The position numbers and the translations under genes were made by a program. Under the pieces are notes generated by a model. It searched no databases and was not told the DNA's origin. It was given only the letters and a program-made list of their open reading frames with translations. Of a stretch of DNA of 64,000 nucleotides, positions 594-17,755 are shown piece after piece. The stretch's first letter is position 1. Each line of letters begins with the position of its first letter. The stretch comes from Escherichia coli. Lineage in GTDB: Bacteria > Pseudomonadota > Gammaproteobacteria > Enterobacterales > Enterobacteriaceae. The stretch lies in NCBI RefSeq assembly GCF_036507355.1, contig NZ_AP027877.1. The stretch is one strand, 5' to 3'.

Positions 594-884
594 TCACGGC
601 ATCAACCCATTGAACAGACGTTTTTTACGCGGCCCGGTCATTAAAGATTCCAGTTTCGCGACACAGGTTTTGTAGTGGGGCGTGGTTTTATGGAACGCCA
701 CTGCGTCTTCATCTTTATAGGCTTCGTAGATATAAAAGCGCGAATTCACTTCCGGGTCCTGTAAGACATCGAAGCGCAAATTGCCTTCTTCCTGTACAGA
801 GCCCAGGTGGTTCTGGCGAAAAACTTCGATAAACTCGTCAACCTTGTCTTCATGAACGTTAATTTCAACCAGTGTGACGTGCAT
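594..884 (-). CDS. lsrG: autoinducer-2 degradation protein LsrG (96 aa)
   Basis: 96-aa [21 protein letters not shown]..., length and sequence match LsrG; sits directly downstream of lsrF. Confidence 0.9.
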
Positions 885-907: not shown

Positions 908-1783
908 TTACTGTTTTTCACTCAGATAGAGTTCATATGCCCGATCAGCCGTTTCGTTATGGTGAACCACCGCCTGTACGGCTTTCATCATCGCCACCGG
1001 ATGGTCAGACTGGAAAATATTACGCCCCATATCCACACCAGAAGCGCCCTGATCGATAGCCTGCCAGCACATTTCCAGCGCCTCGCGCTCCGGTAATTTC
1101 TTACCGCCAGCAATAACAATGGGTACCGGACATCCGGCAACAATCCGTTCAAAACCTTTTTCGACATAATAGGTTTTGATAATTTGCGCCCCCATTTCAG
1201 CGGCGATTCGAGTCGCGAGCGAGAAATAACGCTGATCGCGCACCATATCTTTGCCCACGCCAGTCACGGCCATGGTCGGCATTCCCACTTTCATTCCGGC
1301 ATCGACCAGCTGAATAATATTTTTGATCGACTGATGTTCATATTCGCTGCCGATATAAACCTGCGCCGCCACCGCGCAACTGTTCAGGCGCACGGCGTCA
1401 TCCATCGATAACGCCACGGCTTCATTACTTAATTCCGCCAGAATAGAGTTCGCACCTGACGCCCGCAGTACCACCGGCTTATTGGTCGCCGGGGGAACTA
1501 CGCTGCGCAAAATGCCGCGCGTACACATTAATACATCGGCATGTTCAAACAGCGGGGCGATATTTATATCAATGCGTTCAAGTCCGGTAGTCGGCCCCTG
1601 AAAATAACCATGGTCAAAGGCCAGCATCACGGTTTTACCCGTTTTCGGATTAAATATCCGCGATAAGCGTGACTGCATTCCCCAATCCAGTGCACCGCAA
1701 CCTTTCAGGGTAAAAGGGATATTTTGTTGCGATTGATCGGTACGAAAATCTTTACCATCTTTAATATCGTCTAAATCTGCCAT
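908..1783 (-). CDS. lsrF: LsrF, class I aldolase-family thiolase for phospho-AI-2 (291 aa)
   Basis: 291-aa [31 protein letters not shown]...; length and operon position match LsrF. Confidence 0.9.
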
Positions 1784-3601: not shown

Positions 3602-3639
3602 GGGGGAACCGCAGAATTCGGAAAAAATCGTACGCTAAG
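3602..3639. repeat. left 38-bp terminal inverted repeat of the transposon
   Basis: GGGGGAACCGCAGAATTCGGAAAAAATCGTACGCTAAG; 35/38 match to the reverse complement of 9204-9241. Confidence 0.85.
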
Positions 3640-3790
3640 CTAACGGTGTTCTCGTGACAGCTCTTTGACTAGGCTTTCTAAGGCCATTCTGATAGCCCTG
3701 ACTTCCTGAAAAGCCATGGCTAAAATTTGTGCGGCTAAAAGGGATAACCGATGGTAAAGTAAGTTATCCCTGTCGAGATACTGAAAAGCG

Positions 3791-5368
3791 TTATCCTCGT
3801 TTTTCCCAAAACTGTTTTGCCAGTTCGCTCAGAGCGCTAGTTAACTGAGCGACAGATTTCGCACTTTGCAAATTATTCTGCCCGGTCTGTACATTGGTAT
3901 CAGCAGCATCGCGTATATTGATAATACTGCGGTTTATGTCTTCACTTACTGCTCCCTGCTGCTCGACCGCAGTCGCTATTTGCGCGTTCATGTCGGTAAT
4001 TTCGTTAACGCGTTGGCCAATTCCATCAAGAGCTGTAGCTGCTTCCTCTGCGTGAGCTACACTCGTGTGCGCTTGCCGACTACTTTGCTCCATGACTGTA
4101 ACAGCGGATTGCGCTCGCTCTTGTAGAGCGCTGATCATGCTTTGAATATCCGTTGTCGATTGCTGTGTGCGAGCAGCAAGACTGCGAACCTCATCGGCGA
4201 CAACAGCAAAACCACGCCCCTGCTCACCAGCACGCGCGGCCTCAATTGCTGCGTTGAGTGCCAACAAATTCGTTTGCTCGGCGATCCCTCGTATAACGTC
4301 AAGAACTTTTGATATCTCGTTACTTTGACCTTCAAGCTCATGAATAACCTGAGTGGCTTGCCTAATTTCACCTTCAAGGGCAGTGATTGACTGGCTTGTG
4401 TGGGCTACCAGACGCTGGCCAGATGCCGTCTCAGTGTCTGCTCTTCCGGCCGCATCTGCAGCATGCTGTGCATTGCTCGCAACCTCTTGAATGCTTGCCA
4501 CCATTTGGTTTACTGCCGTTGCTATTTGATCTGTCTCTGCCTGCTGCTCAACTGTAAGTACATTGCTTGACTCAATATCCTTTAGTAGGCCTCGGGTGTG
4601 TTCGCTAAGCCGATTTGATGCATCACCTATGCGACCTACTATGGCGCCTGTTTCAGCTTGCATCATTCGTAAAGCAAACTCTATTTGGCCAAACTCATCG
4701 GTGCGCCCAGTGTAGAGGGATTGACTTAATGGGTTATTGGAAATATTCTTGGCTCTTTCAACCAGTCTTCCAAGAGGAGAGAGAATAGCCAAAACACTAA
4801 CAGAGCTTAAGCTTCCTGACATTAAAGTGGCTAACAATAAGCTGCTTATTGATGTATCAGTAAGCATGCCGGCAGCCATTGCGCTTGATATAATACTACC
4901 CCATATGAGCAAGAGTATTTTCACGGAAAAGCTAGCAGCCAATTTCGGCCTCGCGGCCTTCCCGCTTCTCAATTGAGCATATAATTTTTCCGCAGCCAAA
5001 ACCTGCTCAGGTTCAGGCTTGGTCCTTACAGACTGGTATTCAACAATCGAACCATTCTTAGCTATTGGCGTTACATAAGCACTTACCCAATAGTGGTCGC
5101 CATTTTTACAGCGATTTTTTACTAGCCCCATCCATGAGCGGCCAGATTTTAATGTACTCCACATATGCTCAAATGCAGCAGGCGGCATATCTGGGTGTCT
5201 TACGATGTTGTGAGGCTGGCCTAATAGTTCTTCCTCAGTGAAACCACTGATTTTAATGAAGTCAGGATTAACGTACGTGATATGGCTTTGAGGGGAGGTA
5301 GTCGAAAGAATATTGGCATCTTTTGGGAGTTCTAAGTTTCGACCCGTCACTGGTAAATTCTGGCGCAT
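3791..5368 (-). CDS. methyl-accepting chemotaxis protein with N-terminal PAS domain (525 aa), transposon cargo
   Basis: PAS-like N-terminus ([10 protein letters not shown]...[12 protein letters not shown]), hydrophobic segment, conserved MCP signalling core ([38 protein letters not shown]). Confidence 0.8.
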
Positions 5369-5677
5369 AAGAACCTCAAGGGTTGGCTGTTTTATTTTAT
5401 TGTTTTCGGCATTAAGCCCAATTTCTTGAGCGTTACGATAAAGCTAGCATGGAAACGATAGGTGCAAGCAAGTTAAGGGTTGCATCGCGCATGTCAATCT
5501 AGGCTATACCCTAACTTGATGTCAGGCAGGGCCGCGCCGCTTCGTCAGAATAGAGTCTGCTTTCCCATTTTTTGACACATGCCCGCGAAGGTTATAGATT
5601 TCAGCCTGACAGAAATGGGCTTTGAGGCACAACGGAACAGAAAGTGCACTTAAGCCGCCTTCAACCAAGGAGACATC
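5369..5677. promoter_or_regulatory. putative res (resolution) site and divergent promoter region between chemoreceptor gene and tnpR
   Basis: Intergenic position typical of res in Tn21/Tn1721-type elements; inverted repeats TGTCAGGC / GCCTGACA near 5520 and 5605. Subsites not mapped. Confidence 0.4.
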
Positions 5678-6238
5678 GTGCAGGGGCACCGCATCGGCTA
5701 CGTCCGGGTCAGCAGCTTTGACCAGAACCCGGAACGCCAGCTGGAACAAACCCAGGTGAGCAAGGTGTTCACCGACAAGGCATCGGGCAAGGACACCCAG
5801 CGCCCCCAGCTCGAAGCGCTGCTGAGCTTCGTCCGCGAAGGCGATACAGTGGTGGTGCACAGCATGGATCGGCTGGCCCGCAACCTCGATGACCTGCGTC
5901 GCTTGGTACAGAAGCTGACTCAGCGCGGCGTGCGCATCGAGTTCCTGAAGGAGGGCCTGGTGTTCACTGGCGAGGACTCGCCGATGGCCAACCTGATGCT
6001 GTCGGTGATGGGGGCCTTCGCTGAGTTCGAGCGCGCCCTGATCCGCGAGCGGCAGCGTGAGGGCATCGCCTTGGCCAAGCAGCGTGGCGCGTACCGGGGC
6101 CGCAAGAAAGCCCTGTCCGATGAGCAGGCTGCTACCCTGCGGCAGCGAGCGACGGCCGGCGAGCCCAAGGCGCAGCTTGCCCGCGAGTTCAACATCAGCC
6201 GGGAAACCCTCTACCAGTACCTCCGCACGGACGACTGA
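5678..6238 (+). CDS. tnpR: serine recombinase, Tn3-family resolvase TnpR (186 aa)
   Basis: Resolvase N-terminal catalytic motif (GYVRVSSFDQNPERQ), C-terminal HTH; close to Tn21/Tn1721 TnpR. Confidence 0.9.
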   Translation: MQGHRIGYVRVSSFDQNPERQLEQTQVSKVFTDKASGKDTQRPQLEALLSFVREGDTVVVHSMDRLARNLDDLRRLVQKLTQRGVRIEFLKEGLVFTGEDSPMANLMLSVMGAFAEFERALIRERQREGIALAKQRGAYRGRKKALSDEQAATLRQRATAGEPKAQLAREFNISRETLYQYLRTDD

Positions 6239-6241
6239 CAC

Positions 6242-9208
6242 ATGCCGCGTCGCTTGATCCTCTCGGCCACGGAGCGGGACACCCTGCTTGCGCTGCCGGA
6301 AAGCCAGGATGACCTGATCCGCTACTACACCTTCAACGACTCCGACCTGTCGCTGATCCGCCAGCGACGCGGCGACGCCAACCGCCTCGGCTTCGCCGTG
6401 CAGCTCTGCCTGCTGCGCTACCCCGGTTACGCGCTGGGAACCGACAGCGAGCTGCCCGAGCCGGTCATCCTGTGGGTGGCGAAGCAAGTCCAGGCCGAGC
6501 CGGCGAGCTGGGCAAAGTACGGCGAGCGCGACGTGACCCGTCGCGAGCATGCCCAGGAACTGCGCACCTACCTGCAACTGGCCCCGTTCGGCCTGTCCGA
6601 CTTCCGCGCCCTGGTGCGCGAGCTAACCGAGCTGGCCCAGCAGACCGACAAAGGCTTGCTGCTGGCCGGTCAGGCCCTGGAGAGCCTACGGCAGAAACGA
6701 CGCATCCTGCCGGCGCTGAGCGTGATTGACCGGGCCTGCTCGGAAGCCATTGCGCGAGCCAATCGGCGGGTCTACCGCGCCCTGGTCGAACCACTCACGG
6801 ACTCGCATCGGGCCAAGCTGGACGAGCTGTTGAAGCTCAAGGCCGGCAGCAGCATCACCTGGTTGACCTGGCTGCGCCAGGCACCGCTGAAACCCAACTC
6901 TCGGCACATGCTGGAACACATCGAGCGGCTGAAGACATTTCAGTTGGTGGACTTGCCCGAAGGCCTGGGCCGGCACATCCACCAGAACCGCCTGCTCAAG
7001 CTGGCCCGCGAGGGTGGGCAGATGACGCCCAAAGACCTCGGTAAGTTCGAGCCGCAGCGCCGCTACGCGACCCTGGCCGCCGTGGTGCTGGAGAGCACCG
7101 CGACCGTGATCGATGAGCTGGTCGATCTGCATGACCGCATCCTGGTCAAGCTGTTCAGCGGCGCGAAGCACAAGCATCAGCAGCAGTTCCAGAAGCAGGG
7201 CAAGGCGATCAACGACAAGGTGCGCCTGTACTCCAGGATCGGCCAGGCGCTGCTGGAAGCGAAGGAAAGCGGCAGCGACCCCTATGCCGCCATCGAGGCG
7301 GTGATTCCCTGGGACGAGTTCACCGAGAGCGTCAGCGAGGCCGAGCTGCTGGCCCGGCCGGAAGGCTTCGACCACCTGCACCTGGTCGGCGAGAACTTCG
7401 CCACCCTGCGCCGTTACACGCCGGCCTTGCTGGAGGTGCTGGAACTGCGCGCCGCGCCGGCCGCGCAAGGCGTGCTGGCAGCCGTGCAGACCCTGCGTGA
7501 GATGAACGCCGACAACCTGCGCAAGGTGCCGGCCGATGCACCCACGGCCTTCATCAAGCCGCGCTGGAAGCCGCTGGTGATCACCCCGGAAGGCCTCGAC
7601 CGGAAATTCTACGAAATCTGCGCCCTGTCCGAGCTGAAGAACGCCCTGCGCTCCGGCGACATCTGGGTCAAGGGCTCGCGGCAGTTCCGCGACTTCGACG
7701 ACTACCTGCTGCCGGCCGAGAAGTTCGCCGCACTCAAGCGCGAGCAGGCCCTGCCCCTGGCGATCAACCCGAACAGCGACCAGTACCTGGAAGAGCGTTT
7801 GCAGCTGCTGGACGAGCAGTTGGCCACCGTCACCCGCCTGGCCAAGGACAACGAGCTGCCCGATGCCATCCTCACCGAGTCAGGGCTGAAAATCACCCCG
7901 CTGGATGCGGCGGTGCCGGATCGGGCGCAGGCGCTGATCGACCAAACCAGCCAGTTACTGCCGCGCATCAAGATCACCGAACTGCTGATGGACGTGGACG
8001 ACTGGACGGGCTTCAGCCGCCACTTCACCCACTTGAAGGACGGGGCCGAGGCCAAAGACAGGACGTTGCTGCTGTCCGCAATCCTCGGTGATGCGATCAA
8101 CCTCGGGCTGACCAAGATGGCCGAGTCGAGCCCCGGCCTGACCTACGCCAAGCTGTCCTGGCTGCAAGCCTGGCACATCCGCGACGAAACCTATTCGGCG
8201 GCCTTGGCCGAGCTGGTCAACCACCAGTATCGCCACGCCTTTGCCGCCCACTGGGGCGACGGCACGACCTCATCCTCCGATGGCCAGCGCTTCCGCGCGG
8301 GTGGCCGGGGCGAGAGCACCGGGCACGTCAACCCGAAGTACGGTAGCGAGCCGGGACGGCTGTTCTATACCCATATCTCCGACCAGTACGCGCCGTTCAG
8401 CACCCGCGTGGTGAATGTCGGCGTCCGCGATTCCACCTATGTGCTCGACGGCCTGCTGTACCACGAGTCCGACCTGCGGATCGAGGAGCACTACACCGAC
8501 ACGGCCGGCTTCACCGATCACGTCTTTGCCCTGATGCACCTGCTAGGCTTCCGCTTCGCGCCGCGCATCCGCGACCTCGGCGAAACCAAGCTGTACGTGC
8601 CGCAGGGCGTGCAAGCCTACCCGACGTTGCGCCCGCTGATCGGCGGCACCCTGAACATCAAGCACGTGCGTGCCCACTGGGACGACATCCTGCGCCTGGC
8701 CAGCTCGATCAAGCAGGGCACCGTCACCGCCTCGCTGATGCTGCGCAAGCTCGGCAGCTACCCGCGCCAGAACGGACTGGCCGTGGCCCTGCGCGAGCTG
8801 GGCCGGATCGAGCGCACGCTGTTCATCCTGGACTGGCTGCAAAGTGTTGAACTGCGCCGCCGCGTGCATGCCGGCCTGAACAAAGGTGAGGCGCGCAACT
8901 CGCTGGCCAGGGCGGTGTTCTTCAACCGCCTTGGGGAAATCAGGGATCGGAGCTTCGAGCAGCAGCGCTACCGGGCCAGCGGCCTCAACCTGGTGACGGC
9001 GGCTATCGTGCTGTGGAACACGGTGTACCTGGAACGCGCCACCCAGGGGTTGGTCGAGGCCGGCAAGCCGGTGGACGGCGAGCTGCTGCAATTCCTGTCG
9101 CCGCTGGGCTGGGAGCACATCAACCTAACCGGCGATTACGTCTGGCGGCAGAGCCGCAGACTGGAAGACGGGAAGTTTCGGCCCTTACGGATGCCCGGAA
9201 AACCTTAG
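6242..9208 (+). CDS. tnpA: Tn3-family transposase TnpA (988 aa)
   Basis: 988-aa ORF, typical Tn3/Tn21 transposase length; 3' end runs into the right inverted repeat, as is usual in this family. Confidence 0.9.
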
Positions 9209-9241
9209 CGTACGATTTTTTCCGAATTCTGCGGGCTCCCC
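9204..9241. repeat. right 38-bp terminal inverted repeat of the transposon
   Basis: CTTAGCGTACGATTTTTTCCGAATTCTGCGGGCTCCCC; reverse complement matches the Tn1721-type IR. Confidence 0.85.
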
Positions 9242-9246
9242 AAACA
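9242..9246. repeat. 5-bp target-site duplication AAACA (right copy)
   Basis: Same pentamer as 3597-3601, directly abutting the right IR. Confidence 0.8.
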
Positions 9247-9481
9247 GTACGCCCAATGCAATGGCGCAGAGGCCGATGGTCGAACCAAACGAAATATCGA
9301 TCCCGCCACTGACAATCACCATCGTCAGCGGTAGGGCGACAATGCCAATGCAGATAAAGTCACTGGTGCTGAACAGCAACATATTGAGATCTAACATCCG
9401 CGGGTTAATTGCACCAAATGCGACAATCTCAATAACGAGCAGTGCGGCAAGAGCCAGTTCCCAACCGTAGCGAATACGCAT
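9242..9481 (-). pseudogene. lsrD: lsrD 5' fragment (N-terminal ~80 codons)
   Basis: Reverse-strand ORF begins [30 protein letters not shown]..., then reads into the transposon IR. Confidence 0.85.
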
Positions 9482-10509
9482 TATGCGGCCTCCCGTTTTT
9501 TACCTGACGAAGCGGGTTTAACGGATGGCGGTGGCGTCATAAAGCGGGCATATTTTTGCCGCCGTAGATTACGTTCCAGCGCACAACGCAGGCGTCCATC
9601 AAACACCAGCACCACCAGTAGCACGAGGCCCGCGATAAAATCGTTCCACCATGCCGGAATGCGCAACAGCACCAGTACGCTATCGATCTGCGTCAGGAAC
9701 CATGCGCCGAGTACCGCACCGATGATCGCACCGGAACCGCTGAGCAAACTAATGCCGCCCAGCACGCAGGCTGCAATTGCTTTCATCTCCAGCCCGGTAC
9801 CGGTCTGGTTGGGGATAAAACCAATCTGCGAAGCAAACACAATTCCCGCCAGTGCCGCCATGCAGCCGTTCAACGAAAATGCCACAATGCGAATGGCTTC
9901 CGTACGAACGCCCAGTTGACGAGCGCCCTGTAAATTATCGCCCGTGGCATAAAAACTGCGTCCAAACGCCGTCTTCGCCAGCAGCCAGGCCATAAATGCC
10001 ACCAGAATTATTGTTAACCAACCAATTGCTGAAACGCCAAGCAGCAGCGGGGCGGAGAGCTGTTTCAGTTCGGCGGGTAACCCCTCAATCCATTTACCGC
10101 CAGTCCACAGCAACATGATGCCTCTGTACAACCCTAACGTGCCAAGGGTGGCAACAATGGCAGGGATTTTTAGCCACGCGACCAGGACACCGTTGAAAAA
10201 TCCTGCGAGCAAACCAAGCAGTAAAGTCGCGACACAAGCAACAGGTAGTGAATACCCCGCGTTCAGTAACATCCCCAACAGCACCGCGCACATTCCGGTA
10301 ATCGAACCCACTGAAACATCAATATTGCGCGTAAGCATTACCAGCGTCGCGCCCATTGCCAGCAGGATCAGGATTTGCGCGCTGCTATAAACCATGGTCA
10401 GCGTTTGCACACTTAAATACTGGCGGTCGAGAAAACCGGGTAATACAAACAGCAGCACCACCGCCAGCAGTGCCGTGATTTCACGGTTGTTCTGAATAAA
10501 CTTCAGCAT
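9481..10509 (-). CDS. lsrC: AI-2 ABC transporter permease LsrC (342 aa)
   Basis: 342-aa polytopic membrane ORF between lsrA and lsrD; length matches LsrC. Confidence 0.9.
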
Positions 10510-12038
10510 GACGCCTCCTGACGCTGACTATCGCCGAAGGCAACGCGCATAATAGTCTCGACATTAATATCGCGCCCGGTCAGTGCAGAGTGGGTAATTT
10601 CGCCCTGATGCATCACATACACACGATCTGCCATCAGTTCGATCTCTTCCAGGTCGGAGGAGATAAGCAGCACAGCCACATTTTGTGCGGCGATGCTGCG
10701 TAACAGCTGGTAGATATCATTACGGGCCGAGACATCCACGCCGCGCGTCGGCTCATCGACTATCAATACTTGCGGCGAGGCTTCCAGGCATTTGGCAATC
10801 AGGATTTTTTGCTGGTTGCCACCGGATAATGTCCGTGCAGCTTGTTCCGGTTGGTTAAATTTAATATTCAGCGCCCGACGATATCGTTCCAGGGTGGCAT
10901 TATCTTTCGCGGTTTTCGCCCAGAATCCACGAAGGTTATGAGTAAGGGCGCAGACGTTCCAGGCCAGCGAAGCATCGAGATTCAGTCCGGAGGACTGGCG
11001 ATCTTCCGGCAGATAAACGAGACCGCGCAGTAAACGTTCTCCAGTGGAGAATCTATTGATCTCTTTATCATTCAGCATAATGCGTCCGCCACGCAAAGTA
11101 CGTAGACCATAGAGCGTCTCGGCCAGTTCTGTGCGTCCGGCACCCACCAGCCCAGCCAGACCCAGAATTTCTCCGGCATTTAGCGTCAGGCTGACATTCC
11201 TGAAACCTTCGCCAGTCAGATTTTTCAGTGTCAGCACCGACGTTCCTGCGGCATGTTGTGGGCGGTTACCAGGTAACTCCAGCCATAATTTTTGGCTGGC
11301 AGAGAGCGATTTTTCCCGTACCACTGGCGTGATGGCCTGAATAATGTCGTCGGTAGACAGTTCGCTGGTTTTGCCGCTTAAGGCGATGGTTCCGTCGCGC
11401 ATCACGCTAATTCGATCGGCAATCTGGCGAATTTCCGGCAGCTTATGCGAGATAAAAACAATACCCACGCCAGTAGCAAGCAGCTCTTGCAAGCGACTAA
11501 ACAAGCGTTCGGTTTCCGCAGGGGTAAGCGAGGCGGTAGGTTCATCGAGGATCAGAATCCGCGAGTCGCGCATCAGCCCGCGGAGGATTTCCACCATTTG
11601 GCGATCGGCGACATCCAGCGATCCTGCCAGACTATGCAGATCAAACTGGCAGCCCAGCGCCGCCAGCAAGTTCTTCATTTTCTGCATGGAGAGCTGTTTT
11701 TTTGCCAGCCCAAACAGGATGTTTTCTTTTATCGACAGGCTTGGGAAAAGCAGCGGTTCCTGGGGAACGAGATAAATACCCAGCTGATGAGCATGAACTG
11801 GCGTTAATCTGGCGTAGTTGTTGCCCCCAATCTCCAGCGTACCGCTATCAGCAGGGGTAATACCGGCAATAATCTTCATTAACGTCGATTTACCGGCACC
11901 ATTGCCGCCGAGCAGGGCGTGGACCTCCCCCTGATGCAACGTAAAATCGATGCCTTTCAGGACATTGACCCCTGAATACTGTTTATAAACCGAGCGGGCG
12001 CAAAGTAGCGGTAACGCGCGGGTATCACTCGTTTGCAT
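10503..12038 (-). CDS. lsrA: AI-2 ABC transporter ATP-binding protein LsrA (511 aa, two nucleotide-binding domains)
   Basis: Two Walker A motifs ([18 protein letters not shown]) and ABC signature motifs; 7-bp overlap with lsrC. Confidence 0.9.
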
Positions 12039-12286
12039 ATTTCCCCCGTTCAGTTTTGCAGGTGAGTTTTGAACAAATGTATTTCTGCTTTTAATTTGTT
12101 CATAACCTTAGGTGGACATTGCACATATTTCCGACGAATAGATCACAATTTATGCTATTTTGATTTTCGCGGTTGCGTTTGTTCATGCTCGTAGAGTCAA
12201 ACTGTGGTTGCCATCACAGATATAAATGCGCAAGAACTGAACAATTGCATTAAAGATTTAAATATGTTCAAAGTGAAGAATGAATT
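12039..12286. promoter_or_regulatory. divergent lsrA / lsrR promoter region
   Basis: 248-bp AT-rich intergenic region between divergent lsrA and lsrR; inverted repeat TGAACAAAT-N15-ATTTGTTCA at 12070-12102 is a candidate operator. Confidence 0.55.
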
Positions 12287-13240
12287 ATGACAATCAACGA
12301 TTCGGTAATTTCAGAACAGGGAATGTGTGAAGAAGAACAGGTCGCGCGGATCGCGTGGTTTTACTACCACGACGGGCTGACCCAGAGTGAGATCAGCGAT
12401 CGTCTCGGCCTGACCCGTTTGAAAGTGTCGCGATTACTGGAGAAAGGGCATCAGTCCGGCATCATTCGCGTGCAGATTAATTCTCGCTTTGAAGGCTGTC
12501 TGGAATATGAAACACAATTACGTCGTCAGTTTTCGCTGCAACATGTCCGGGTGATCCCTGGGCTTGCGGATGCTGATGTCGGCGGGCGACTGGGGATAGG
12601 CGCGGCGCATATGTTGATGAGTTTACTTCAACCACAACAGATGCTGGCGATTGGTTTTGGCGAGGCAACCATGAATTCGCTGCAACGCTTAAGTGGTTTT
12701 ATTTCGTCACAGCAAATTCGCCTGGTCACGCTCTCCGGTGGCGTCGGTTCCTATATGACGGGTATCGGGCAGCTTAACGCGGCGTGCAGTGTGAATATTA
12801 TTCCGGCTCCGTTGCGGGCATCCTCCGCTGACATTGCCCGTACGCTAAAAAATGAAAATTGCGTCAAAGATGTTCTGTTAGCCGCGCAAGCAGCGGATGT
12901 GGCGATTGTCGGCATTGGGGCCGTGAGTCAACAAGACGACGCGACGATCATTCGCTCCGGTTATATCAGCCAGGGCGAACAGTTAATGATTGGCCGAAAA
13001 GGGGCGGTTGGCGACATTTTAGGCTACTTTTTTGATGCAAAAGGTGACGTTGTCACGGATATTAAAATACATAACGAACTGATTGGCTTACCTTTAAGCG
13101 CGCTGAAGACCATACCCGTCCGGGTTGGCGTGGCAGGGGGAGAAAATAAAGCCGAAGCAATTGCCGCTGCAATGAAAGGCGGTTATATCAACGCACTGGT
13201 TACCGATCAGGACACAGCAGCGGCGATTTTACGTAGTTAA
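12287..13240 (+). CDS. lsrR: lsr operon repressor LsrR (317 aa, SorC/DeoR-type)
   Basis: 317-aa [54 protein letters not shown]...; HTH followed by sugar-phosphate-binding domain. Confidence 0.9.
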
Positions 13241-13318
13241 ATTTGCATGACCTTATTACCGGGAATGATGGAGAACGTATAGAGGAACAGACAGAACGCA
13301 TAAGCCGAGGATAATCTA

Positions 13319-14848
13319 ATGGCTCGACTCTTTACCCCTTCAGAATCAAAGTATTACCTGATGGCGCTGGATGCAGGCACCGGAAGTATTCGGGCTGTGA
13401 TATTCGACCTGGAAGGCAATCAAATAGCAGTGGGACAGGCGGAGTGGCGGCATCTGGCAGTACCGGACGTTCCTGGTTCTATGGAATTTGATCTCAACAA
13501 AAACTGGCAACTGGCGTGTGAGTGTATGCGCCAGGCGCTGCACAACGCCGGCATAGCCCCGGAGTATATCGCTGCCGTTTCGGCATGTTCGATGCGTGAA
13601 GGCATTGTTTTATATAACAATGAAGGAACACCGATCTGGGCCTGCGCCAATGTGGATGCCAGAGCGGCGCGCGAAGTTAGCGAACTTAAAGAACTGCACA
13701 ACAATACCTTTGAAAACGAAGTTTATCGCGCGACCGGACAAACGCTGGCTTTAAGTGCCATCCCCAGATTACTTTGGCTGGCCTATATGCTCAGCGGCGA
13801 ACTTGCGGTGGATCCCTCTAACGCTGGCACCACGGGACTTCTTGATCTAACCATCCGTGACTGGAAACCTGCATTGCTGGATATGGCTGGCCTGCGTGCC
13901 GATATTCTTTCTCCTGTCAAAGAAACCGGCACATTGCTGGGCGTGGTAAGTTCACAAGCGGCGGAACTCTGCGGTCTGAAGGCGGGCACTCCGGTGGTCG
14001 TTGGAGGAGGCGACGTGCAGCTTGGTTGCCTGGGGTTAGGCGTTGTGCGTCCGGCACAAACCGCGGTTCTTGGCGGCACATTCTGGCAGCAAGTTGTAAA
14101 TTTAGCCGCGCCGGTGACAGACCCAGAAATGAACGTGCGCGTTAATCCTCATGTTATTCCTGGCATGGTACAAGCTGAATCTATAAGCTTTTTTACCGGA
14201 CTCACCATGCGCTGGTTCCGCGATGCTTTCTGTGCCGAAGAAAAACTGATTGCCGAACGTTTAGGCATCGACACCTATACGCTGCTGGAAGAGATGGCCA
14301 GTCGGGTGCCGCCTGGGTCGTGGGGCGTAATGCCGATCTTCTCCGACAGAATGCGCTTTAAAACCTGGTATCACGCTGCGCCTTCCTTTATTAACTTGTC
14401 CATTGACCCGGATAAATGTAACAAAGCGACATTGTTCCGTGCGCTGGAAGAAAATGCGGCGATTGTATCAGCGTGTAACTTGCAGCAAATTGCTGATTTC
14501 TCGAATATTCATCCTTCATCGTTAGTCTTTGCAGGCGGAGGTTCAAAAGGGAAATTATGGAGTCAAATTCTCGCTGATGTCTCGGGATTACCCGTCAATA
14601 TTCCGGTAGTCAAAGAAGCCACCGCATTAGGATGTGCCATTGCAGCTGGCGTCGGTGCCGGAATTTTTTCATCAATGGCAGAAAACGGAGAACGCCTGGT
14701 TCGCTGGGAACGGACGCACACACCAGACCCAGAAAAGCATGAACTTTATCAGGATTCACGCGATAAGTGGCAGGCAGTTTATCAGGATCAGCTGGGGCTG
14801 GTTGATCATGGACTGACGACGTCGTTATGGAAAGCGCCTGGGTTATAG
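13319..14848 (+). CDS. lsrK: autoinducer-2 kinase LsrK (FGGY carbohydrate kinase), 509 aa here
   Basis: FGGY-kinase N-terminus ([13 protein letters not shown]), lsrRK context; in-frame stop immediately upstream of the ATG at 13319. Shorter than the ~530 aa I recall for K-12. Confidence 0.85.
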
Positions 14849-15060
14849 TTTCATTGACAGCCACATCATGATGACCGTGGCTGTTAGTTTTTGAGTATAG
14901 TTATTCTTATTTCCCTTCTTTTAGAGCTGGCTTGTTAAATGCCAGCTTGCAGATTCATCGTTCCATCACCAGTACTATATTCAAGGGAAAATTGCTATTT
15001 TTCTTGGTGATGCTGCCAACTTACTGATTTAGTGTATGATGGTGTTTTTGAGGTGCTCCA

Positions 15061-15336
15061 GTGGCTTCTGTTTCTATCAGCTGTCCCTCCTGTTCAGCTA
15101 CTGACGGGGTGGTGCGTAACGGCAAAAGCACCGCCGGACATCAGCGCTATCTCTGCTCTCACTGCCGTAAAACATGGCAACTGCAGTTCACTTACACCGC
15201 TTCTCAACCCGGTACGCACCAGAAAATCATTGATATGGCCATGAATGGCGTTGGATGCCGGGCAACAGCCCGCATTATGGGCGTTGGCCTCAACACGATT
15301 TTACGTCACTTAAAAAACTCAGGCCGCAGTCGGTAA
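15061..15336 (+). CDS. insA: IS1 InsA (91 aa)
   Basis: [43 protein letters not shown]... zinc-finger/HTH InsA. Confidence 0.95.
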
Positions 15337-15758
15337 CCTCGCGCATACAGCCGGGCAGTGACGTCATCGTCTGCGCGGAAATGGACGAACAGTGGGGCTA
15401 TGTCGGGGCTAAATCGCGCCAGCGCTGGCTGTTTTACGCGTATGACAGGCTCCGGAAGACGGTTGTTGCGCACGTATTCGGTGAACGCACGATGGCGACG
15501 CTGGGGCGTCTTATGAGCCTGCTGTCACCCTTTGACGTGGTGATATGGATGACGGATGGCTGGCCGCTGTATGAATCCCGCCTGAAGGGAAAGCTGCACG
15601 TAATCAGCAAGCGATATACGCAGCGAATTGAGCGGCATAACCTGAATCTGAGGCAGCACCTGGCACGGCTGGGACGGAAGTCGCTGTCGTTCTCAAAATC
15701 GGTGGAGCTGCATGACAAAGTCATCGGGCATTATCTGAACATAAAACACTATCAATAA
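15255..15758 (+). CDS. insB: IS1 InsB reading frame (167 aa; the transposase InsAB' is made by -1 frameshift at the A-run near 15310)
   Basis: Canonical InsB sequence; TTAAAAAAC slippery run in the insA/insB overlap. Confidence 0.9.
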
Positions 15759-15773
15759 GTTGGAGTCATTACC

Positions 15774-17755
15774 GGAATTTCCTCGGAACGGGCGAAGCTT
15801 TCCGCTATATCTATATCGGTGATGCTGGCGATGGTGAACTTAATGTCTCGAGTGAAGGCAAAGTAGATTCGGGAATTATCACTGCGGGGATGAAAGAAAC
15901 AGGCACAGGCAACATTACTGTTAAGGATAAGAACTCCGTTATCACTAATCTCGGAACTAATCTTGGTTATGACGGCCACGGCAAAATGAATATCAGTAAT
16001 GAGGGGCTTGTTGTCAGCAACGGAGGAAGCTCTCTCGGTTATGGAGAAACCGGCGTCGGGAAGGTTAGCATCACCACGGGGGGGATATGGGAGGTCAATA
16101 AGAATGTCTATACCACCATTGGTGTTGCGGGCGTCGGAAACCTCAATATTAGCGATGGCGGTAAGTTCGTATCGCAAAATATTACTTTTTTGGGCGATAA
16201 AGCAAGCGGTATCGGCACTCTGAACCTGATGGATGCGACATCATCGTTCGATACTGTGGGTATCAATGTCGGTAATTTTGGTAGCGGTATCGTAAATGTC
16301 AGTAATGGTGCCACCCTTAATTCAACGGGCTATGGATTTATCGGAGGAAATACCTCCGGTAAGGGGATAGTTAATATTTCAACGGATAGTCTCTGGAATT
16401 TAAAGACATCATCTACTAACGCCCAATTGCTACAGGTCGGTGTATTAGGCACGGGTGAACTGAATATTACCACCGGAGGTATAGTTAAAGCGCGTGATAC
16501 ACAGATAGCTCTCAATGACAAAAGTAAGGGCGACGTGAGGGTGGATGGGCAGAACTCTCTTCTTGAAACATTCAATATGTACGTAGGGACATCTGGTACG
16601 GGTACGTTAACCCTGACGAATAGCGGCACGCTGAATGTCGAAGGTGGAGAAGTTTACTTAGGTGTTTTTGAACCTGCTGTAGGAACGCTAAACATTGGTG
16701 CAGCTCACGGTGAGGCGGCGGCAGATGCCGGGTATATAACCAACGCGACGAAAGTAGAGTTTGGTTCTGGCGAAGGTGTTTTTGTCTTTAATCATACTAA
16801 TAACAGTGATGCCGGCTACCAGGTCGATATGCTGATTACAGGTGACGATAAAGACGGAAAAGTGATCCATGATGCAGGCCATACGGTGTTCAATGCAGGG
16901 AATACTTATAGCGGTAAAACGCTGGTCAATGACGGCATCCTGACCATTGCGTCTCATACGGCAGATGGGGTAACGGGCATGGGTTCGAGTGAAGTAACCA
17001 TTGCAAGCCCCGGTACGCTCGACATTCTCGCATCAACGAACAGTGCAGGAGATTACACGCTGACCAATGCGCTCAAAGGCGATGGCTTGATGCGAGTGCA
17101 GCTGTCATCCTCCGACAAGATGTTTGGCTTTACCCATGCAACAGGGACTGAATTCGCCGGTGTTGCCCAAGTGAAAGACAGTACCTTCACTCTGGAACGC
17201 GACAACACCGCTGCGCTTACTCACGCGATGTTGCAGTCTGACAGTGAAAATACCACATCGGTAAAAGTTGGAGAGCAATCCATTGGTGGACTGGCCATGA
17301 ATGGAGGTACCCTCATTTTCGATATCCAGGTCTTTCAGTGGTTGATTGGCGCAACGGATGGCCATGCAAAAAACTTCTCCGTATTTATTCAGGCTGGCGG
17401 CAGTTATCGACTCACGCCATTTTACGACATCATTTCAGCATTTCCGGTATTGGGTGGCGCGGGAATACACATCAGCGATCTCAAACTGGCAATGGGGCTT
17501 AACGCATCCAAAGGCAAAAAAACGGCAATCGATAAAATTTATCCGCGACATTTTTTGGCGACAGCAAAGGTGCTGAGATTCCCGGAAGTGCAGATGCATG
17601 AAATCCTGAGTGACTTTGCCAGAATGATTCCGGCAGCACTGGATAACGTGAAGACTTCATTACCGACAGATTTTCCAGAGAACGTGGTGACGGCAGTTGA
17701 AACCAATGTGTTGAGGTTGCACGGTCGGTTAAGCCGAGAATACGGTATTAAGTAA
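15774..17755 (+). pseudogene. chimeric remnant: AIDA-like autotransporter passenger fragment (ydeK/yneO-like, 5' end removed by IS1, no beta-barrel domain) fused in frame to the 3' end of hipA
   Basis: N-terminal ~480 codons are Gly/Thr/Asn/Ser-rich beta-helix repeats; the last ~142 codons are the HipA C-terminus. Confidence 0.7.
17327..17755 (+). pseudogene. hipA: hipA 3' fragment (C-terminal ~142 codons of the HipA kinase toxin, including the catalytic loop); hipB and the hipA 5' part are absent
   Basis: QVFQWLIGATDGHAKNFSVFIQAGGSYRLTPFYDIISAFPVLGG...RLHGRLSREYGIK matches the HipA C-terminus; the N-terminal domain and ATP-binding region are not upstream. Confidence 0.75.

Follow-up and report, generated by a model that had tools for sequence, protein, structure and literature searches.

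A rare, naturally occurring 63-bp in-frame deletion in Escherichia coli lsrK, a probable null allele of the autoinducer-2 kinase

Introduction

The kinase LsrK makes AI-2-P, and AI-2-P relieves repression by LsrR. Knockout of lsrK alone abolishes both the internalisation and the sensing of autoinducer-2 (AI-2), and functional LsrK was absent in 23 of the 40 E. coli strains surveyed by Brito et al. 2013 (PMC3595036). The lesions in that survey were nonsense mutations, large truncations and small indels that shift the frame. In strain 83972, fitness has been linked to loss of the lsr locus (PMC12263705). Domain I of LsrK comprises residues 13-260 (PMC8028047). The protein also has a docking site for HPr, in which L123, I148, L151, L152, A155, Y162, M210 and A211 form a pocket for HPr-F48 (PMC5983913) and D160 and R163 make salt bridges or hydrogen bonds to HPr (PMC10223898).

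Here we describe an lsrK allele found in a 64,000-nucleotide stretch of E. coli DNA (the window). Like the decaying lsr systems of E. coli and Shigella described by Brito et al., this locus has a lesion in lsrK, whose loss suffices, and mobile elements in and beside the operon (a transposon in lsrD and IS1 157 bp after lsrK). It departs from the surveyed lesions in that its lsrK deletion is small and in frame. The decay of lsr in E. coli is already well documented, and what is new is one precisely mapped lsrK allele that, judged from its sequence, is probably null; a literature search for a description of an lsrK allele deleted for residues 156-176 found none. The allele adds to a pattern in which E. 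coli keeps AI-2 production and often loses AI-2 reception.

Layout of the lsr locus

The whole lsr locus lies in the window in the K-12 arrangement, with lsrRK divergent from lsrACDBFG, and the synteny of lsrR and lsrK matches that in E. coli C and K-12. The features are as follows.

594-884, minus strand: lsrG, intact, 96 aa, identical to K-12
908-1783, minus strand: lsrF, intact, 291 aa
1810-2832, minus strand: lsrB, intact, 340 aa
2844-3602, minus strand: lsrD 3' fragment (Pfam BPD_transp_2, profile positions 55-269 only)
3603-9241, no strand assigned: Tn1721/TnAs1-family transposon (Tn3 superfamily) in lsrD, 5,639 bp
3791-5368, minus strand: PAS-MCP (methyl-accepting chemotaxis) gene (Pfam MCPsignal/PAS)
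5678-6238, plus strand: tnpR (Pfam resolvase)
6242-9208, plus strand: tnpA (Pfam Tn3 transposase)
9242-9481, minus strand: lsrD 5' fragment (9242 is where alignment to relatives whose 330-aa lsrD is intact breaks off)
9481-10509, minus strand: lsrC, intact, 342 aa
10503-12038, minus strand: lsrA, intact, 511 aa
12287-13240, plus strand: lsrR repressor, intact, 317 aa, co-transcribed with lsrK (ORF, synteny)
13319-14848, plus strand: lsrK allele with a 63-bp in-frame deletion, 509 aa vs 530 (ORF and 5YA0 match)
13775-13782, plus strand: deletion junction, the lone surviving copy of the 8-bp direct repeat TGGCTGGC (8-base overlap of the left and right ungapped comparisons)
14857-14892, plus strand: terminator-like hairpin, ACAGCCAC, a 12-nt loop and GTGGCTGT, then TAGTTTTT (read from the sequence)

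LsrR has the same length as its K-12 counterpart, from which it differs by three substitutions. The terminator-like hairpin has an 8-bp stem and a T-rich tail, sits directly 3' of lsrK and is kept upstream of IS1. A consensus scan of 14700-15100, with a loop limit of 8 nt against the 12-nt loop here, returned no terminator and one promoter-like site internal to IS1, and an Rfam scan at gathering thresholds found no RNA families in 11800-16200.

A single internal gap in lsrK

A preliminary description of this DNA, made without database searches, had put the 509-aa lsrK ORF about 21 codons short of K-12 LsrK, with native termini and an internal difference. Alignment agrees on each count. The K-12 and E. 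coli C genes encode 530 aa, the start and stop coincide with the K-12 annotation NP_416028.3 (530 aa), the proteins align at either end, and a single internal in-frame gap of 63 bp accounts for the whole difference in length. This gap takes away 21 codons, those for LsrK residues 156-176 (equivalently 153-173). The best solved-structure match of the ORF is 5YA0, the E. coli autoinducer-2 kinase (E = 0), whose chain consists of 530 native residues and a 10-residue tag; the alignment falls into two blocks (query 1-158 and 152-509) and leaves 21 chain residues unpaired. At the DNA level, ungapped comparison with the E. coli C gene (locus L001, 1593 bp) extends from the left to nt 464 and from the right to nt 457, and therefore exactly 63 bp are missing, with an overlap of 8 bp. 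The top-ranked matches of the ORF among 5,426 RefSeq complete E. coli genomes all came in two pieces spanning 1,593 bp, the query plus 63 bp. Pairwise alignment thus confirms the internal gap against 5YA0, E. coli C and K-12 alike. One detail of the preliminary description has to be corrected: it placed a closing stop immediately upstream of the ATG, but the TAA overlapping the ATG lies in another frame and the nearest in-frame stop is the TAA at 13301-13303, five codons away.

Outside the gap the protein is about 99% identical to K-12 LsrK (b1511; 5YA0/5YA1/5YA2), an FGGY-family kinase. It differs from the common E. coli C allele WP_000113145 at two amino acids and from K-12 at four; relative to the commonest E. 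coli allele, the changes are T200I, T477N and eight synonymous substitutions. The gene shares with its K-12 counterpart the position after lsrR and opposite lsrACDBFG, the start and stop, and the catalytic and nucleotide-binding motifs, with DAGTGS, GGGD and GGGSKG all kept in the 509-aa protein. Unlike K-12 LsrK, it is without domain I residues 156-176, which include the HPr contacts D160, Y162 and R163, residue D173 and one of two conserved tryptophans. Antisense ORFs of 84-98 aa within lsrK are without support and were treated as chance.

Inheritance and rarity of the allele

At least 10 other public E. coli contigs, from at least 3 samples, encode the identical 509-aa protein, and several NCBI accessions carry it under the name "autoinducer-2 kinase [Escherichia coli]". 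Carriers include GCA_905398585.1, GCA_016660925.1, SRR17480487 and seven more contigs, drawn from NCBI and Logan, and their loci are 100% identical to the window across lsrC-lsrA-lsrR-lsrK. Length differences in single genomes are often annotation effects, and a short frame could also come from an error in sequencing or assembly. Here such an artefact, or a mere difference in the annotated start codon, has virtually no chance of being the explanation: both termini match the 530-aa protein residue for residue and the same junction recurs in these independent NCBI and Logan assemblies, which together refute it.

We searched for the junction with a 42-nt query designed to keep its longest uninterrupted match to intact genes below 28 bases. 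None of the 5,426 RefSeq complete E. coli genomes contained the junction 42-mer, whereas the control 42-mer from the intact gene matched 4,199 of them. As a further control, local BLAST with the junction query found the window and its relatives L002-L004 and did not find the intact gene. No exact copy of the 42-nt junction was present in JGI metagenome contigs. The closest complete genomes are about 99% identical to the window over 17900-42000, and the window lineage is therefore unrepresented in the RefSeq complete set. The lsrK deletion allele is natural, inherited, lineage-specific and rare. Its carriers are essentially clonal, with 0-1 SNP in 18 kb, so they hold no evolutionary signal of relaxed constraint after the deletion.

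The two copies of WLA and of TGGCTGGC in the longer genes could in principle mark an insertion as well as a deletion, which raises the converse reading that the 509-aa form is ancestral, or a plain length polymorphism, and that K-12-like genes carry a 21-codon insertion or duplication. However, LsrK is 521-535 aa in Salmonella, Klebsiella, Yersinia, Serratia, Photorhabdus and other genera, the segment is present in all distant FGGY kinases, and the 63 bp are not a duplicate of flanking sequence; the complete E. coli genomes, with thousands of intact matches and no junction, point the same way. The 509-aa form is derived, because enterobacterial LsrK proteins of 521-535 aa and distant FGGY kinases keep the segment. 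An ancestral 509-aa form, refuted by the lengths in other genera, the FGGY alignment and the intact 42-mer count, retains only a vanishingly small probability.

Deletion junction and mechanism

The preliminary description had pointed to short direct repeats near 13775-13790 as the site of the difference, and the junction does lie there, at 13775-13782. Its eight bases, TGGCTGGC, can be assigned to either side of the gap. Intact genes read TGGCTGGC-GCACCAT...AGCGAC-TGGCTGGC with a 63-bp period in all four references (E. coli C, STEC383, O145:H28 RM12761 and K-12); the flanking repeats are thus present in intact genes, as an origin by slippage requires. The single residual copy of TGGCTGGC is, as read from the DNA, the signature expected of a slipped-strand or microhomology-mediated deletion. 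Slippage between the two copies, 63 bp apart, would have removed codons 156-176 and kept the frame.

Exact direct repeats of this kind are few: lsrK has only 13 pairs of at least 8 bp within 300 nt, and the TGGCTGGC pair, 63 nt apart, ranks among the three with the shortest spacing. A 9-bp pair, CGGCACATT, with 147-nt spacing coincides with a separate natural allele that is missing residues 225-273, including GGGD, which supports the view that slippage between repeats is a recurrent source of deletions in lsrK. A hairpin between repeats facilitates slipped-strand deletion and is not required for it; folding of the 79-nt interval as DNA revealed no unusual hairpin tendency (-9.8 kcal/mol, z = -0.19 vs shuffles).

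Predicted effect on the kinase

We aligned 91 full-length FGGY kinases with 27-55% identity to LsrK. Between LsrK positions 152 and 177, 89 of the 91 have 24 residues, one has 22 and one has 21. The window protein has 3 residues there, and no homologue has fewer than 21. Conservation in and beside the segment is high at W153 (99%), P159 (79%), D173 (89%) and W174 (81%), and the consensus L-L-M-I at 168-171 looks like a buried strand. Domain I is therefore incomplete, its 24-residue connector (LsrK 153-176) being cut to 3 residues. The lost segment presumably comprises a short helix and a beta-strand of the sugar-binding domain I, together with the end of the helix before them and the start of the helix after them.

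Profile searches show the same break. PF00370 (FGGY_N) matches intact LsrK in one stretch at 169.8 bits and the window protein in two stretches at 129.1 bits, split at the junction, while PF02782 (FGGY_C) scores 69.8 bits in the window protein; both domains are above their cut-offs, and the two-domain architecture is present. All NCBIfam FGGY models (LsrK, XylB, GntK, GlpK and others) are split at the junction. The LsrK equivalog model NF008187 gives 932.9 bits in two stretches, compared to 1001.5 bits in one stretch for the intact protein, and the deleted allele thus passes the cut-off of 528. Since it passes this naming threshold, gene-presence surveys would wrongly score carriers as AI-2 responders, and in-frame lesions of such size are invisible to name-based surveys.

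The preliminary description had suggested that kinase function may be altered, and the constant length of the segment, the broken FGGY profiles and the HPr contacts inside it all argue indirectly for that suggestion. Loss of a domain I element of constant length would probably give a misfolded or inactive kinase. We consider it highly likely, from these sequence comparisons, that the kinase is misfolded, destabilised or inactive; loss of function is likely because the segment belongs to the FGGY fold and carries HPr-docking residues. A folded protein with residual activity is possible, as the WLA repeat recreates a plausible helix at the junction and the frame and motifs are kept. AlphaFold2 with single-sequence input returned a pLDDT of 36.7 for the intact and 37.2 for the deleted protein, values too low to be informative about the fold.

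Other natural deletion alleles of lsrK

At least 19 different E. coli lsrK alleles with internal in-frame deletions are represented among public proteins. Like the window allele, the others (e.g. 225-273, 147-205 and 129-168) occur in the same gene and species with an intact frame, and candidate repeats of 7-9 bp lie at the ends of at least two more of the deletions (225-273 and 122-181). Microhomology at the other 18 alleles was assessed crudely, by placing protein-level boundaries on reference DNA, and only the 7-9-bp cases are quotable.

All 19 deletions fall within residues 21-368 and none touches the last 160 residues. Depth is greatest, at eight alleles, in the HPr-docking segment (residues 153-168), and among these eight the window allele has the smallest deletion. 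When the same deletions were placed uniformly at random, such depth arose in 3.6% of trials (P = 0.036) and the lack of any C-terminal deletion in 0.045% (P = 0.00045), figures in which ascertainment is uncontrolled and in which ascertainment, local repeat content and selection are indistinguishable. Alone among the eight alleles over 153-168, the window allele leaves nearly all of domain I in place.

The HPr-docking surface

The HPr-docking residues that we traced in the window protein also took in the polar contacts E122, D160 and R163. D160, Y162 and R163 are deleted and the remaining residues are present in the sequence. The deletion thus lies exactly on the published HPr-docking surface, and the allele would offer a cheap natural test of whether this surface can be removed without losing catalysis.

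An alternative to loss of function is a folded, active kinase that lacks only this surface, so that AI-2 phosphorylation and lsr induction escape inhibition by unphosphorylated HPr. If this were true, quorum-signal uptake would be uncoupled from PTS sugar status. Consistent with such a protein, the deletion takes out D160, Y162 and R163 and borders on A155, it preserves the frame and leaves the catalytic motifs and domain II unchanged, and 8 of the 19 natural in-frame deletion alleles overlap residues 153-168. However, the length of the segment is constant in 89 of the 91 FGGY kinases, also in families without HPr binding, and the segment is therefore part of the fold and not a regulatory add-on. 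Other alleles at the site lack 40-96 residues of domain I, which makes activity implausible for them, and lsrD is also destroyed in the window, which is hard to square with selection for better AI-2 uptake. On balance we regard an active kinase freed from HPr as improbable. The broader proposal, in which the window encodes a natural, working, HPr-insensitive LsrK and the pile-up of eight independent in-frame deletions reflects recurrent selection against HPr (PTS) control rather than random decay, strikes us as very improbable. We therefore favour a kinase that has lost function.

Consequences for AI-2 reception and the order of decay

With LsrK inactive, no AI-2-P would be made and the intact LsrR would keep both lsrACDBFG and lsrRK repressed. 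Because LsrR is intact, the lack of AI-2-P would leave the operon locked off; we infer this regulatory outcome on the premise of an inactive kinase. Cells repressed in this way would make AI-2 and neither import nor sense it.

Three features of a decaying lsr locus occur together in the window: lsrD split by a transposon, IS1 at 15006-15773 and the lsrK deletion. The disruption of lsrD that the preliminary description had noted is due to the Tn1721-family transposon at 3603-9241. The relatives L002-L004, identical in other respects, lack this element, which matches TnAs1-family elements on many enterobacterial plasmids at 100% identity. Its ends are 38-bp terminal inverted repeats that start with GGGGA, and AAACAG is found at both ends, so that the target duplication is 6 bp long, or 5 bp with one further base that is ambiguous.

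In near-identical relatives the lsrK deletion occurs alongside a fully intact lsrACDBFG, in which lsrD encodes 330 aa, and therefore the lsrK deletion preceded the transposon in lsrD. In the window lineage, the kinase lesion came first and the transporter lesion later. The lsr operon was probably already silent when the transposon struck lsrD.

IS1 and the downstream region

A copy of IS1, at 15006-15773, follows the lsrK stop at a distance of 157 bp. In relatives its place is taken by 1,382 bp that include the 5' end of an ECSE_1600-family autotransporter gene, and we therefore read the difference as an IS1 insertion with an adjacent deletion. Further downstream, at 17324/17325 within a long autotransporter ORF, the window lacks a 2,205-bp segment that the relatives have (L002 14621-16825). 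In the relatives this ORF encodes 1,731 aa, and its product also has HipA-type Pfam hits, which suggests an older, putative autotransporter-hipA fusion in the window lineage.
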